DNA of 52,142 bases, filler included, from Dirinaria sp. TL-2023a (GCA_051941275.1; 2 parts of 2 records of this genome joined end to end with filler, not necessarily neighbours in it); one strand, 5' to 3'; shown: positions 9,480 through 17,199, counted from the first letter of the whole stretch. Translations and numbers: made by a program. The notes: generated by a model from the sequence alone, not told the origin.

Positions 9480-12029
9480 TCACTTGATGCCGAACCGCGA
9501 CGATAGTGTGGAGTATTTGTCCGTCTTTGCCGGACTTTGCACAGAGTGAGTGAGTCTGCCATGCGTCAGCAAAGTCTGCATCTGGCCGAGAAGCAGTTCC
9601 CAATGCCTACTTCTCAAGCAACACCGGCCCGTTCATTGCATCTACTCTGCCGTATTTCTTATTTCTCGTCGAGACGTCGTAGAATTCCTCGGAATTCTCG
9701 GCTTGCATCAGGGCAACTGTCTGCTGCAGCTCCTCCAAGTTCTGCCCCAAGATCGGGTTCCCGAGCGTATCCACGAACTCAGTGAGATAACGGACGTCTC
9801 TGGCTAGAGCGCTGACGCCATTGGGATTAATTCGTTTTACATCGGGTGATAGAGGTAGTCCCTGTTGTTGAACATTTAGCAAATGGCAGACGCCAAAAGG
9901 AGGGGGCGAGCCCGGACCAGTATCATCGTAGCTGCATGGCTCAAAGCATCAAAGTATATCAGCTCTTTGATTTCAGTCGGGAGGCCCAAGAGCACGGAGC
10001 CCATGATATTCGAAAGATATGTGGTCAACGTGGACATATATTCGCTAGGTTTGCTACTATCGTAACCGGGAGCCAGCCTACAAGAACGGTCATCAGCGTT
10101 AGTGGCCGGGCTGTAACACCTACAATAAAAACACAAAATAAGGGTTTAAAGAGCCTACCAGTCATACTCCGCCGTCTCGATTAGATCATCGATCTTGGAG
10201 TTAACCAATTCAAATATTCGCTTTTCTGCTGTCTTCTTATGACCGCGGAAGTCCTCGGTAGCTCTCAATACAATGTTTGCGCCGGCAGATGCTGTTGATC
10301 TGGCAGCAATAAGTAGCTGTTCAAGCTCTTGACATGCGATCTCAAAATGTTCGAGGTTGATTAGGATCTGAACAATTTGACCAAGGTACTGAGAGCTCAG
10401 GCGTTCGACCAAGGAAAAACAAACTTTCTCGGATAATAATTCATCTAGCGAAGCATGCAATGTCTCGTCGATGACACGAGGATGCTGGAAATGATCGTCA
10501 GAGAAGAAGTAGAATTGGTTTAGGAAATTCCGAATATCGATACAGCACAGCGGATACATCTGGGAGAAAGGCAAAACTAAGGGGAAATTCAGCTCTTCCC
10601 GTGGCCTGTCGGGCGTATACCAGCTGACATTGACCACCTTGTCGTACTCATCAGGCTTATTGATCGGCATGGGCATGTAATCGTCAGTCGATACGATCTC
10701 GTGGAAGTCATCGCTAAATCTCTTCTTCAGGAGCTCTGCGTATTTTTTGAAGAGCGTCAGGAGGAAAGCGTCAAGAGCGCCGACCGAGTATCCCCAGGAG
10801 TCCATAGTTTGGACAAACAAGGCAATGACACCTTTGATGCGAAGTACCATCTCAGCATTATCCACTTCGTGCAAAGCATTGGAGATGAGCGTAATGGCCG
10901 TTTGGCACATCGAGTCCCAAAGCTCATCGACATCCGCAGCGGAACGTAATTGAGGCGCTCGTTCCATTGTTGCCTTCTCCACGATCGCAAAGCCAGCTAT
11001 ACCTTCTAGAAGTTCATTCAGGCTTGCTCCTTCAGCATCTACCAAGGTCACAGAAGCTGGCATGAGGAGCTCTTTCTGCTGTCTTCGAGTCGCAGCATAC
11101 TCGGTCCGGAATTTATTAGTTTCGCCAAGAGCATCATGGATATGAATACATTCGAACAGAGGCGTGAAGTCAACCTGCACCTCCTCGTTATCAAGCACGC
11201 TGAACTCCTCTGTCTCATCGGATACGAGCTCGATGGCCGAATTGAGCTTGAAATTGCCCAGATACTCTTTCGCTTCTGTGCGCTCTCTGTGCCTTGTCCT
11301 CCTCTGCTCTGTATGGTAGAAAGCTACTTCACCGAGAAATTGAGAGCTCTCACGAATACGGTATAGCCAGGTATTGAGATCAGTCATGACTGCCTCAGCA
11401 ATAAGCTTCTTTGTCGCAGGTACAGACTTCTGAATCATGTCCGCGATCTTGTACTGGGTAACCTCCTTCAGGTGGACATTCTGAAGCTCATCAAGCGCTC
11501 TCAAAGCCGAGTAGTAATTTGTCTTGCCCAGTAGGTCGTGGACCTGGTTGGCCAAGCGCAGAACTTCCAGACAATCCTTGAGCGCCTGCGTGGCCTCATC
11601 AATATTCTGTCGCACTCCTCGCGACTCCACCAGAGCTTTTTTCTGTTCCGCAAGCTTTTCGGTGCTGGATTGGATGGATTGGTTAAGATTCAAAATTTCT
11701 GAAGTCAGACTGACAGTGCCCTCCCGGACCTGGAGAAGCTGATTGACGGATGTGACGAAGCCTTGATGATTTGTATTACATATTTTCTCAATTTCGGCTT
11801 CGCGATCGCTGGAATAGTGGGTAAGGGATTGCAGTAGCTGCTGCCCGCGACCGCCTTTGCTTGCATCTCGAATCGCTGGAATTAGTTGGTTTAGATACTC
11901 GTTGTCTGAGGGGGACTGGACTGTCTACAAATTGACTACATCAGCATTGCGAAGCAAATGCTTTGTTGCTCTCATTACCTGCTGTACAACATAATCGAGC
12001 TCACTGCGAGGATCAATGACGGAAGGCAT
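9480..12029 (-). CDS. SEC15: Exocyst complex component Sec15; 4 exons
   Basis: The 512-aa ORF has the Sec15 motifs VDFTPLFECIHIH, LPFSQMYPLCCIDIRNF and KIDDLIETAEYDW. The first exon is MPSVIDPRSELDYVVQQ at 12029. The last exon ends SSRFGIK* at 9480. Confidence 0.92.
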
Positions 12030-12566
12030 TCCGAGGAACTACACAGTGCAAGAATGGGTTTTATGCTCGGCTGTAGCACTTCATTCTTGGATGGAAGTGG
12101 TGTCTAAGGGTATATCGAGGGCTAATTTTGGTTAACCCAGCCGTGCTCATCCATGGTCTGAGGATGGATGAGATGTAAGGTAATGTATGGAATAAAATGA
12201 TACTTACATGTACGTAAGATAGCTATCAGGCAGGCAATTGAAGCACACAAACCGCTTTCTCTCCTCTGGCGTCTAATCTGGAGCTAAAAGTCTTGGCTGA
12301 TTTGGCGCCAAGACACGGTCTAAGCATGTGACTGCTTTTTCGCTCCAGCTCTTCAGCTTCATACTACTTACTGCGTGTATCGACAATATGAAAAATAATC
12401 GGAAGCAACCCTTCATATCGCTCCTTCCAAAGTGAGTGTACAGCTGCTTCATAACCCATGTGCATGTAATCTCCTTGCAAAACAGAATTCCAGCTAGATC
12501 TTCACAGCTCAGCGCGCTCCCCATTCATCACCTCATGTCTTTACCAGACATATCAGTGGTTTCCTT

Positions 12567-13322
12567 CACGATCACCGCTTTGCAACCACTCGTCCGTTGA
12601 TCTGGTAGATGGTATGCATCCTTCCCTGGCTGTGGCCAAAGGATCACAGGCTGCGGACACGGAAGTCGAGGTAGTACACGTCCCCCCCTCTGCCCCGGTG
12701 GACTAGGTGAGGTATTCACGATCACCGCTTTTCAACTGCTCCCCAAATGATCTCATAGACTGTATGGATCCTTTCCTGGCTCTGGCCAAAAGATCACAGG
12801 TTGCGGACACGGAAATCAAGGTAGTACACGTCCCCCTTGCCCGGGTTGAATAGCTGAGGTATTTTCTCCACGATCACCGCTTTCCAACTGCTCGCCAGTT
12901 GATCTCATAGACTGTATCCATCCTTCCCTGGCTCTGACCAAAGGAGCACGGGCTGCGGACATGGAAATCGAGGTAGGACACGTCCCCCATGCCCGGGTTG
13001 ATTAGCTGAGGTATTACTTCACGATCACCGCTTTTCAACCGTTTGCCGATTGATCTCATAGACTGTATGGATCCTCACCTGCCGCTGACCAAGGGAGCAC
13101 AAGCTCCGGACATGGAGATTAGGGTAGTACGCGTCCGTATGTGCTCGGGCTGTCTGGCTGAGGTATTTTCTTCACGATCACCGATTTTCAACTTCTTGCC
13201 CGTTGATCTCATAGACTGTATGCCGTATGGATCCTCACCTGCCGCTGACCAAGGGAGTACAAGCTCCGGACATAGACATCAAGGTGGTACGCGTTCGTAT
13301 GTGCCCGGGCTGTCTGGCTGAG
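12567..13322 (+). repeat. Tandem array of five diverged ~150-153 bp units
   Basis: The anchor CACGATCACCG starts at 12567, 12717, 12869, 13020 and 13173. Shared blocks: TGATCTCATAGACTGTAT, GGACA(C/T)(G/A)GA and TGAGGTATT. Confidence 0.95.
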
Positions 13323-13783
13323 TTCTTGCCGTCGTGACGACAAAAACTTAGGGCATGGGTCCACCGTCCGGCCGAATTCGTCGATGGTGATGATGGGAAT
13401 TTGCGGTGATCAGGTGAATAGTGGGTCTGGGCTGGATGCTGGAGGGGGTTGTGGTTGGTCCAGGCAGAAAGCCACTTTAGCAGATTCCCATTTCTTCCAG
13501 AGATAAAGTGACAAACCTTCATCCTCGTTTCCTTTCCCTTCTCTTCTTCCATTCCCTTCCCACTGCCACCCTCCACTGTACAAAAGCCAAACCGGTTCGA
13601 CACTTCTGTCGAATTGTGTCTGTGTTGATCCTCTCTTCCAGTGAAGGCAGCAGTCCCAGCTGCATTCATTATCACCTGCTTCGACTGCCGATTCAGGGTT
13701 CTTCGTCCCGCTCCACGATCTACACCGCTTCGTTTTTGTTCCAAGTTCGCCTTGTCAAAGATACTTCGTCCTCGCTAATCAAC

Positions 13784-16705
13784 ATGACGAGGGACACCAA
13801 CTATCGCCGCATTCTTGTAGGCAGCCCTAGTTCTTCGGACCCTGTTCCTGGATCTTTCCAGAACACTCCAGAGACTCAACCAACAGCCATCTCTCCCGAG
13901 GAGGTTCGTTCAGAGCAGCGTGTACCCAAGGCCGGCATTTCCAGACAGAGTGTGCCACCGGCCTTCGGTCTCCATGTTTACCCTATGCCAGGCCCTGGCA
14001 ACCATGTTAGTAATATCTCTGCTTCGAATTCCTTAGACCCGTTTGTTGTATCTTCTCGTGCTGCTGCAGCTGGGTACCAAGCCACCGGGCTGCCTAAGCC
14101 TTCTCCTTCTGCTAGCAGCTTCACTCCTTCAACTGGAGTTCAACCTGTGAACTTGCCTGCCTCTGCTGGTAACAAGCACGGCGAGGACAACAGCGATCAT
14201 CATTCTGCTACGCCTAGGCCACGCGCTACTTTAAGCAGCTTCTTGCCTTCCCAAGTGGGATCTTCGGCTGCCGTTGAGGCAGCAGCGTCTGCAAATGCGC
14301 AGCCTCATCCTGTTGGCTCGTCGGAATCGAATGCTTTTGATAAGGTAGGGCACTTCTCCTCGGATTGTAACACGTCGAGGTACCTCATGCTGGGCCGTGT
14401 TCCGCGAAATATCTCCTTAGCAGAGCTCGAGTCATTGATCGGGGTAAGCTGTTGTCCCATAGCCCCCAGCAGCTGGTCACTTACTAAATGAGCTCAGCAA
14501 AACTTCTTTCCCTCGTTGAAACACCTGGGACTCAACGAGCTCGCCGTTACTGAGACGGTCTACGCCAGCTTCTCCGATATTCGAGATACCTTGAACGCGT
14601 ACACCAAAGTACAGGCAGCTCGACCCGGGTGGACCTTGGGTCTCATTGGCACTATTCGGTACTTCGAGAAGTATTATCCAGGTTTGACGCTCCCTCCCTT
14701 GGTTTACGAAGGCCAAGTGTCTGTCAAAGTTGAGTACGGTGGGCCGGACTCTTGCTTCGATGTTGCCAGCATTGGCGTCATCGTGAAAGAGATCCTGGAA
14801 AACTACGGAGATGTCAACGCCATGGAGGTAACTGAGATTAACTCTCCAGCTGTAACGTTCCGTGCGGAGTATTATGATAGCGTTGCGGTCAATAGTGCAT
14901 TGACGTCGCTCCAAGGGTTCAGAATTGCGGTTAGTTCTAGTGGCATGCTAAATTACTAGAGAAGACTAATAAGGTATGAGTAGGGCTGCACAATTGGCAT
15001 CACAAATTATGGGACGGGAGATGCCGGCCTCATCTCTCCATATGGAGGTCAAGCCCCTTTGATCGTAGGTCACGATGGCACGGGACTCGAGCATGCAATG
15101 GGGAACATGAACCTGGGTGTTGGTCAAGCTACGTATGGTCAAGCTACGTATGGTCATAACTATGTGGCCTCACCCCTAGTCTCGCCTTACTTCACGCCTC
15201 CAGCGGCCAATCGTTCTTTCGGCTATCATAGGGAGCTAAATAGCCAGCAAGTGCCCTCACCTCTGGTACTCCAGAAGACAAACTTCAACGAGCCAGGATC
15301 CGCCGAGAGCTCGCCATGGAGCCCCTTTTTCAGCCCGTACGGGGATTATGGACTACAATCTCCACTCTGGACCCCGTACACCCCTGGTACTATTGGCCAA
15401 GAGCGTGGAACTCCCGTGATGTCACCATACCCCCCGATCTACCCATATCAACAGCGTACACCAGTGAGATTCGTTGGCCGCTCTCCCAACGAATACCCAT
15501 CGAGCCACCATAATTTTGTCGACGTTGAACGTATCCGCCAGGGCTTGGATGTTCGAACAACTGTATGTTACCAAACACGTGTGGCCGAGAAGCCTACTGA
15601 ATCCCACTTTTATAGATTATGCTGCGCAACATTCCAAACAAAATCGACCAGGTAAGTCTTCTCCTTCCGCTCTCGGGAACCAACCTAACGGCGCCAAAGA
15701 CCATGCTTAAGGAGATCGTCGACGAGACGAGCCATGGTAAATATGATTTCATGTACTTGCGTATTGGTAAGTCTCATCTGCGACGAATGAGAATTGGACT
15801 ATACAACTAACTATTGGCAGACTTCGCCAACAATTGCAAGTAAGGAGCTCCTAGGAAATCGGGCATAGGATTTGCCGGGACTAACGCGGACAGTGTTGGC
15901 TATGCCTTCATCAATTTCGAGGACGTGAGTAGAGCTCTCGCCGGGGCCAGCTTCAGACGCTAACTCACAATAGCCTTACTTCGTCATTGATGTCAGTCAA
16001 ACGTGTTAGAAGTGTGCAGCCTCATGCTGACAGTCTAACAGTTCATGAACGCTAGAGCAGGTCAACGCTGGTAAGAATCGTTCCTAGTCGCTGTGCCAAA
16101 GAACTCGCGTTGACTTGAAGAAGGAACCGTTTTAGTAGCGACAAGGTTGCGGAGATCTCTTACGCAAGTAAGACATCGTCTCGGCACCTTTTTGCTGATT
16201 GGCTAACGTGTTACAGCTATCCAAGGTAAGGATTGTTTAGTCCAGAAGTTCCGTAATAGCTCTGTGATGCTCGAGCATCCATCTTTCCGGCCAAAGGTAT
16301 GGACCGCTTATTGATGCGTCGAAGATGTGGCTTATATGCGCAGATCTTTCACACCGGCACTGGTCCGTTGGCAGGGACGGAAGACTCCTTTCCCGGTCCG
16401 GACAATCCATCCAAGATGCGTAGGTCCGTGGAGAATGCTGAGCATATTGGTAAGATATCATCCCCTAGCGACGCAAGTGCAATCTCTAATGGATGGGTAT
16501 ATAAGGCCTGTTCGCACCACGTGTTGGTCAGTCCTACCGCGACGAGCAACGTCGTCGGCGTTCCCAGTGGGACCGTGGTACGCGCATGGCTGCAATGGAT
16601 GATGCGTATGACCTCGCACATCCTACTCACTACTATCCGGGCCCGACTCTACGGTACCGACGCTCTACGCCATACCTTCCCACCTTTGCAGAGTACCATT
16701 CGTAA
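13784..16705 (+). CDS. mei2: Mei2-like RNA-binding protein (C-terminal Mei2-type RRM); about 13 exons
   Basis: The spliced C-terminus reads DVRTTIMLRNIPNKIDQTMLKEIVDETSHGKYDFMYLRIDFANNCNVGYAFINFEDP...WNRFSSDKVAEISYATIQGKDCLVQKFRNSSVM, the Mei2 RRM3 signature. Degenerate RRMs lie upstream. Stop TAA at 16703-16705. Confidence 0.88.
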
Positions 16706-17199
16706 CACCACCTCCGCCAAAACTGTTTCCCTATTGTTTCTTGATAAGCATGGGCCTTTGTGCATATGATATTGGAGTGGCGGCCAGGCTTGGTCGCCCC
16801 CTTATCGTATTACTTTCGACAATCTTATGGGTCTTTACGGAAAATGGGTAACAGGAAAGCGATGGAGGCGGTCTTTGTAGGTCATGGGTCCCGGTTGTCT
16901 TAAAATCCAACGCGAAGTGTGGCATTTGGTGCTATCATGTGGAATGCTGGCTCGATAGCTTCAACTGGACTATTGGCTGTAGCTAGTGTATGGCACCTTC
17001 GCTGTGAGATTTCGAATTCGTTAGGTAGAATGGTAGCCAGTAGCAGTCCACTTTGACGGACATCTCGCTTAGCAGAACAATGCAAATTTGCGCTTCTTAA
17101 CATCATCTTCTGCCATTGACCGTTTCCAGAAAAAGATTTATGTACAAGCAAACTGTAGAGACCAACACCCTTCCCGACCATTATCCAACAAAGCTCGAC

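Follow-up and report, generated by a model that had tools for sequence, protein, structure and literature searches.

Intron gain through the expansion of an intron-containing DNA repeat has been described for the Cryptococcus neoformans gene CNN00420 (Sharpton et al., 2008; PMC2395259). Other reports describe the introner-like elements of fungi, near-identical short spliceosomal introns that are dispersed among unrelated genes (PMC4457414), and intron gain by tandem genomic duplication, in which the duplication itself makes one new intron out of exon sequence (PMC4974935). Long undecoded transcript isoforms (LUTIs) have been described in budding yeast (PMC8153250; PMC8829799). Among the mei2 genes, that of S. 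pombe is reported to have a long 5′ untranslated region (UTR) with high scanning-subunit coverage (PMC9825154), and MEI2 of Histoplasma is reported to have a low translation efficiency (PMC4503680). Here, we analysed a tandem array of five units in a 52,142-nt stretch of DNA from Dirinaria sp. TL-2023a (GCA_051941275.1), which consists of two records joined, filler included, and is referred to as the window; all coordinates are window positions. The window is fungal DNA, and the host of the array is a lichen-forming ascomycete. The array is located in the 1.75 kb that separates the start codons of two divergent genes, Sec15 and a Mei2-like gene.

With slightly better than even confidence, we regard the array as an intron-containing tandem repeat expansion in a sense-transcribed and mostly non-coding upstream RNA, in which the open reading frames (ORFs) are incidental, the encoded peptides are unselected, and a distal transcript is followed by a later canonical Mei2 start. 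A cassette made of an exon-like piece of ∼100 nt and a weak GT..AG intron of ∼51 nt would have been multiplied head to tail into five copies. The ORFs of 29–36 residues would have been inherited from a single ancestral open frame, with no selection acting on their amino-acid sequence.

The architecture of the unit was examined by repeat finding. Tandem Repeats Finder reported a period of 152 with 4.4–4.5 copies and 79–80% matches over 12560–13322, and a repeat search recovered an 80-nt core five times, at spacings of 150, 152, 151 and 153 bp; no further copies of the unit were detected elsewhere in the 52-kb window. Units 1–4 each finish with GAG/GTATT, where the slash marks the predicted exon–intron boundary, and the following unit starts after CATAG/. 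The sequence TTGAT was located 12 nt from the 3′ end in three of the four introns (introns 2–4). The head-to-tail unit holds a complete intron with its donor, branch-like site and acceptor, as is characteristic of an intron-containing tandem repeat expansion. The exon-like part splits the units into two groups, with units 1–3 being 87–88% alike, units 4 and 5 92% alike, and the two groups 69–74% alike, and the intron-like part is 78–89% alike across all unit pairs. Between the two group consensuses, agreement extends to 42 of 45 columns in the intron-like part and to 76 of 97 in the exon-like part (Fisher P = 0.03), which indicates that the intron, and not the "coding" part, is the best conserved portion of the unit.

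Evidence of transcription was obtained from two public RNA runs (X1 and X2) of one lichen sample from a single study, in which 7–8% of the sampled words were present. Assembled contigs were placed on 11900–16900 at a likeness of at least 90%. The contigs were 90–97% like the window, which indicates that they derive from a relative (∼93% identical) and not from the window's own strain. The Sec15 intron at 11925–11978 was removed in contigs of both runs, demonstrating that genuine RNA is present in the data. In the region of the array, contigs covered 12381–12540 and 12552–13488. The 838-nt contig of X1 runs over 12552–13001, continues with seven letters and resumes over 13102–13488; read with the relative's own exon-end variant, it gives the junction 13010/13104, which takes out 93 nt that start with GT and end with AG. 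A contig of X2 carries a loose end of 28 letters before 13060, which matches 12981–13008 at 23 of the 28 positions and gives the junction 13010/13062, the removal of exactly the 51-nt intron-like segment 3; this segment is kept in an X2 contig over 13024–13089. These junction calls are an interpretation, since the raw listing had 13010/13104 as a 100-nt skip with seven letters and 13010/13062 as a loose end.

One sample thus held one unspliced and two spliced forms, and the spliced forms share the donor that the repeat predicts. Both junctions are canonical (GT..AG) only on the plus strand, which indicates sense transcription. The contigs show that, in a relative, the array is transcribed in the sense direction and a repeat donor is used at least once. 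For introns 1, 2 and 4, only unspliced forms were observed in the contigs, and junctions thus support a single intron of the four in the array. In the relative, the 838-nt contig has the five units in an unchanged register, and no clear copy-number variation between the window and the relative was found. A 201-nt contig with a 149-nt skip and a 29-nt side is ambiguous between a variant one unit shorter and a mapping ambiguity; its joint, 12688 to 12838 with TC..CT ends, was rejected as splicing and ascribed to ambiguity of the repeat register or to a one-unit variant. The features are collected in Table 1.

Table 1. Features of the array and its flanks, in window positions.
Feature	Coordinates	Strand	Details
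Tandem array, five ∼151-bp units	12553–13337	+	Repeat finding; unit 1 begins within the intron-like part; unit 5 passes into unique sequence after 13322
Exon-like segment 1	12609–12711	+	103 nt; ORF 12614–12706, 30 residues
Intron-like segment 1	12712–12758	+	47 nt, GTATTC...CATAG; unspliced only in RNA contigs
Exon-like segment 2	12759–12858	+	100 nt; ORF 12764–12853, 29 residues; relative with extra T after 12834, frame shifted
Intron-like segment 2	12859–12910	+	52 nt; unspliced only in RNA contigs
Exon-like segment 3	12911–13010	+	100 nt; ATC at 12916, not ATG; stop TAG 13003–13005 is TCA in the relative
Intron 3	13011–13061	+	51 nt, GT..AG; removed in X2 contig (13010/13062), retained in contig 13024–13089
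Alternative intron with intron-3 donor	13011–13103	+	93 nt; acceptor AG 13102–13103, CTGAC at 13085; removed in X1 838-nt contig
Exon-like segment 4	13062–13162	+	101 nt; ATG 13067; first CxxC
Intron-like segment 4	13163–13214	+	52 nt; intron of the original prediction; unspliced only in contigs
Exon-like segment 5	13215–13337	+	7-nt insertion 13218–13224; ORF 13227–13337, 36 residues, second CxxC; donor GT lost (GAG/TTCT)
Unique stretch upstream of array	12381–12540	+	Present in RNA contig; the contig itself gives no strand
ATG-free 345 nt before Mei2-like start	13439–13783	+	0 ATG; contains pyrimidine tract; putative proximal promoter plus leader of the canonical mRNA
Sec15 first exon and 5′ UTR	11979–12207	−	Divergent gene; gene calls and RNA contigs
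Mei2-like first coding exon	13784–14344	+	Start ATG 13784, A at −3; identity to P0001

The original prediction had described five units that encode related peptides in a common relative frame, the last two of which would be spliced into a double-CxxC peptide. The repeats were recovered, an ATG was observed in the matching relative frame in all units except unit 3, and four of the five peptide strings were exact; the tail of the unit 1 peptide was misread, as it ends in VHVPPSAPVD before the stop and not in PPLPRWTR. Excising 13163–13214 reproduced the 72-residue ORF with two CxxC motifs, in which units 4 and 5 share one frame because of the seven extra bases of unit 5, likewise confirmed; unspliced, the frame opened in unit 4 extends over 84 residues (13067–13321). 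As for this intron, its homologue in unit 3 is the one that is spliced in an RNA contig, and 13163–13214 itself was seen only unspliced. In the form with all introns removed, stops occur in all frames and the longest ORF is the 72-residue one. A repeat protein made by full splicing was rejected, given the fact that the exon-like lengths (103, 100, 100 and 101 nt) are no multiples of three and that stops occur in every frame.

The openness of these frames was compared with chance. Per exon-like segment of ∼100 nt, the predicted frame holds the terminal stop only (none in unit 4), frame +2 holds 0–2 stops, frames −0, −1 and −2 hold 0–1 each, and frame +1, with 2–3, is the clearly closed one. A neutral simulation (20,000 runs, substitution-only, with an open ancestor and branch lengths equal to the observed divergence) retained an ATG in at least four of the five units, with all five stop-free over 24 codons, in 24% of the runs. 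The openness of the frames is no greater than chance gives. Every repeat ATG has T at −3, and the main Mei2-like ATG has A at this position. A caveat of the original prediction, that the frames may be open only through shared descent or duplication, proved to be the better reading.

For upstream ORFs (uORFs) of the conserved-peptide type, of which the fungal arginine attenuator peptide is an example, the defining feature is a conserved amino-acid sequence. No purifying selection on the amino-acid sequence was found here, either between the units or against the one relative. In pairwise comparisons of units 1–3 (1–2, 1–3 and 2–3), synonymous changes were 0 among 7, 8 and 11 differences, respectively. 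Between the unit groups, the ratio of the proportions of non-synonymous and synonymous differences (pN/pS) was 0.66–0.83 in the predicted frame, and the other two frames gave comparable near-neutral values. Over their first 24 codons, units 4 and 5 differ by three synonymous and four non-synonymous changes (pN/pS 0.45), with S/P at codon 27 in addition, which agrees with the count given originally. The codon comparison with the relative was partial, covering the 32 of the 53 X1-contig differences that were among those listed, and in it the 25 changed codons of the five ORFs comprised 17 non-synonymous and 8 synonymous ones (binomial P = 0.30 against neutrality). The relative also has a frameshift in the ORF of unit 2 and a lost stop in unit 3 (Table 1), and it is without the 7-nt insertion, so that splicing in its array would not bring units 4 and 5 into one reading frame. 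The in-frame fusion of units 4 and 5 is not conserved.

Homologues were also searched for. For the 84-residue ORF, a word-based search among proteins of 46–147 residues returned none that shares words with it, and Pfam assigned no family to it. A profile of the five peptides, run against 1.84 billion representative proteins, gave only two matches (P0002 and P0003; E 1.5e-4 and 5.7e-4), and these were rejected as relatives of the peptides because their scores sum eight and five identical short repeats of unrelated repetitive proteins. P0003 (132 residues) contains five copies of ...SIHPYLAITSGHQS... with a period of 14 residues, which were likened to the start of the unit peptide (IHPSLALTKG) and taken as chance. 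An ESM Atlas search reached a best score of 0.78 and revealed no homologue. A gene on the minus strand (a 144-residue ORF at 13235–13669) was also rejected, having no Pfam family, no homologue among proteins of 79–252 residues and splice junctions that are non-canonical on that strand. The short peptides look like accidental by-products and not real proteins. The original observation was essentially correct and its interpretation partly supported, with regard to transcription and the intron type, whereas peptide coding and a young micro-protein gene were not supported by the selection tests, by the relative or by the protein searches, and the check across units and one relative that it had proposed came out near-neutral. 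For annotation, the array is a warning that repeated open frames within a duplicated block are no evidence of coding.

In filamentous fungi, a proximal core promoter and canonical 5′ UTR typically appear as a pyrimidine tract with a leader devoid of ATGs after it. We counted 21 ATGs in 12381–13438, as against 14.9 expected from shuffles, and none in 13439–13783, where 3.8 were expected (P = 0.019); the latter stretch contains a tract at 13515–13574 that is 88% pyrimidine. An ATG-rich extension is hence followed by an ATG-free proximal leader, the order of elements that is looked for in a LUTI. We infer that 13439–13783 comprises the proximal promoter and the canonical Mei2 leader. The RNA of the array would begin at a distal promoter close to the Sec15 promoter, and the canonical Mei2 mRNA would begin later, at the pyrimidine-rich tract preceding the ATG-free leader. 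If a distal transcript extended as far as the Mei2 start codon, it would bear ∼21 upstream ATGs and poorly spliced introns, and owing to these it would be poorly translated and decay-prone, regardless of the peptides. The resulting barrier to Mei2 would be generic and LUTI-like, not peptide-based. A stronger claim would be that the array forms the body of a LUTI-like distal transcript, which keeps the Mei2-like regulator untranslated and the proximal promoter quiet in the vegetative thallus, with expansion of the cassette of upstream ATG plus weak intron serving in evolution as a dial for the strength of the repression; we consider this unlikely. Within the same region, 143 nt ahead of the Mei2 start codon, the sequence GTTGATCCTCTCTTCCAG/ at 13618–13641 looks like the end of the repeated introns with its branch and acceptor (GTTGATCTCATAG/). 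It might serve as the acceptor of a leader intron, for which one of the repeat donors could provide the 5′ splice site.

Several points weigh against an unselected repeat expansion in a distal upstream RNA. All of the RNA support consists of assembled contigs from one sample of one study and from a relative, in which transcript ends, strand and level are not visible, and the strand call rests solely on the GT..AG orientation of the two junctions. It is conceivable that the junctions represent deletions in the DNA of some members of a mixed lichen population, and the unspliced parts of the contigs could be pre-mRNA or contaminating DNA, with only one of the four repeated introns having a junction. 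No contig joins the array to the coding sequence of Mei2, and nothing else ties the upstream RNA to it; contig cover was absent over 13570–16900, which includes that coding sequence, and this absence was not taken as evidence on array–Mei2 continuity or on Mei2 silence. The two-promoter picture rests on the ATG depletion, a single test, together with the pyrimidine tract. Weak constraint on the peptides is hinted at in small samples, by the low pN/pS of units 4 and 5 and by unit 1, where four of the nine differences from the relative are synonymous, and the relative keeps four of the five ATGs and, among the differences listed, both CxxC motifs.

The explanation that comes next in our estimate, possible but on balance rather improbable, is that the array is transcribed without effect, as a neutrally drifting minisatellite in a divergent, promoter-upstream transcript that comes from the Sec15 promoter and stops short of the Mei2 promoter, so that neither its RNA nor its ORFs act on Mei2. 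The array does differ from the relative at a larger share of positions than the neighbouring first exon of Sec15 with its 5′ UTR (53 of 837 as against 5 of 198, P = 0.04), the ATG frequency over 12381–13438 is random, the ORFs are without selection, and neither fold covariation nor an Rfam family was found. On the other side, and not strongly, the relative's contig holds the five-unit register, the intron-like part with its invariant 11-mer is better conserved than the rest, and splice signals are in use. The same 11-mer, CACGATCACCG, could belong to an element that acts as DNA, namely a promoter minisatellite with five evenly spaced copies of a putative binding site for a factor controlling Mei2 and/or Sec15, to which transcription would be secondary. 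This 11-mer starts at 12567, 12717, 12869, 13020 and 13173, does not vary among the five intron-like segments and has no other match in the window (5 matches as against 0.73 expected; 5 reached in 0 of 100 shuffles), its segment is the best-conserved part of the unit, and the array sits between two divergent genes. However, the five matches descend from one ancestor and are not independent, the relative has the first two bases of the unit 3 copy altered (12869–12870), and the 11-mer lies inside a segment that is removed as an intron, a role that alone accounts for the extra conservation. We know of no factor that recognises CACGATCACCG, and we consider a DNA-level element very doubtful.

An equally low probability is given to the proposal made originally, in which selected uORFs tune Mei2 translation or nonsense-mediated decay through their translation or their peptides, or units 4 and 5 form a young double-CxxC micro-protein gene. 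An in-frame ATG has been kept in four of the five units despite a divergence of 26–31% between the groups, the four non-synonymous changes that accompany the three synonymous ones between units 4 and 5 are conservative, and both sense transcription and splicing of the homologous intron type are in line with the proposal, as are the Mei2 genes of other fungi for which a long leader (S. pombe, PMC9825154) or low vegetative translation efficiency (Histoplasma, PMC4503680) has been reported. Against these stand the neutral simulations, of which 24% produce the same pattern, the entirely non-synonymous differences of units 1–3, and the relative, where 17 of 25 changed codons are non-synonymous, one frame is shifted, one stop is lost and the insertion behind the 72-residue fusion is lacking. 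Intron 4 was never spliced in the contigs, the repeat ATGs are in a poor start context (T at −3), and the 1.84 billion representative proteins hold no homologue except the two repetitive chance matches.

The downstream gene can be assigned to the Mei2 family by the PF04059 criterion. Its first 187 residues, encoded by exon 1, are identical to P0001, a protein of 538 residues that carries PF04059 and is labelled in its source as a hypothetical protein from a metagenome-assembled genome of a lichen fungus (Dirinaria sp.). The window fragment itself scored 24.7 bits for PF04059, the C-terminal RNA recognition motif (RRM), which is under the cut-off of 25, the domain being interrupted by introns. 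The P0001 model splices from 14344 to ∼14498, and the window frame stays open to 14443 (…SRYLMLGRVPRNISLAELESLIG), with a better donor, GTAAGC, at 14444, right after the end of the open frame. The Mei2-like gene model in the 14345–14497 region may be short by 33 residues of RRM-like stretch; the 33-residue piece from 14345–14443 alone matched no Pfam family. The neighbour on the minus strand was identified as the Sec15 exocyst gene by Pfam PF04091 and PF20651.

The possibility of a structured RNA was considered separately. With E values of up to 5 allowed, Rfam gave no match within the array. The consensus fold of the units had a covariation term of +3 with a compensatory change in 1 of 40 pairs, which amounts to no covariation. 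A structured RNA or a host of small nucleolar RNAs (snoRNAs) was rejected on these grounds and because introns of 47–52 nt were judged too short for an intronic snoRNA. Upstream of the array, a 56-nt stretch on the minus strand (12480–12535) with GUGAUGA, CUGA and UGUGAAGA boxes gave a weak match of the archaeal C/D-box type (sR2, 25.1 bits as against a gathering threshold of 42, E 0.005 over 1.6 kb), in which the last box is CUGU and not CUGA; it falls within the contig-covered 12381–12540, and the likeness is probably due to chance. In unit 5, the window and the relative differ by four G-to-A changes that cluster in the 11 nt of 13287–13297, and three of these are at CpG (13291, 13293 and 13297). 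The CpG differences fit deamination of methylated cytosine in repeated DNA. A metagenome scan with a 20-nt core (two N) returned 24 loci with a single match each, and BLAST of 12381–13800 against these recovered only the seed of 20–31 nt; the matches are due to chance and yielded no relatives.

We know of no LUTI that consists of tandem exon–intron cassettes. The locus resembles LUTIs in having an ATG-rich 5′ extension ahead of an ATG-free proximal leader in a meiosis-related gene, going by the portions of the LUTI reports consulted (PMC8153250; PMC8829799). It differs from them in that no transcript is shown to span the array into the Mei2 coding region and no repression of the proximal promoter is shown. 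Were the LUTI-like reading true, a translational or decay barrier built from repeats would be undescribed for LUTIs or mei2 genes. Should the upstream RNA extend into the Mei2-like gene, one could study here, in a natural system, how far the output of a developmental regulator depends on the numbers of its upstream ATGs and weak introns. The leaders of S. pombe and Histoplasma mei2 share with it the family (PF04059) and the general idea that Mei2 is held back post-transcriptionally when there is no sexual development; the consulted parts of these reports (PMC9825154; PMC4503680) mention no tandem repeat or repeated introns, and the likeness is one of description. Conserved-peptide uORFs resemble the unit ORFs in being short, starting with ATG and preceding the main ORF of a regulator, and differ in that the unit peptides fail the conservation test.

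Introner-like elements and tandem genomic duplication, as far as the available text of the two reports describes them (PMC4457414; PMC4974935), also yield short near-identical introns from duplication. Unlike the former (PMC4457414), the array introns are all adjacent, with none elsewhere in the 52-kb window, and unlike the latter (PMC4974935), a pre-existing intron appears to have been copied. The closest parallel is CNN00420 (PMC2395259), where, in the parts of the report consulted, the tandem unit likewise includes a whole small intron, near-identical introns are multiplied in one transcribed region, and the multiplication probably arose through unequal crossing-over or replication slippage. 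CNN00420 is a protein-coding gene whose copy number varies among strains (PMC2395259), whereas the array lies upstream of a coding region in an apparently non-coding RNA, the single relative seen shares its five-unit register, and junctions were found for one of four introns. The array adds a clear case, backed in part by RNA, in which the expansion of a tandem repeat has multiplied small introns within a non-coding upstream transcript instead of a coding region. The process itself, intron-containing repeat expansion, is already known, and the array is an ordinary but well-documented case of it with partial RNA support.

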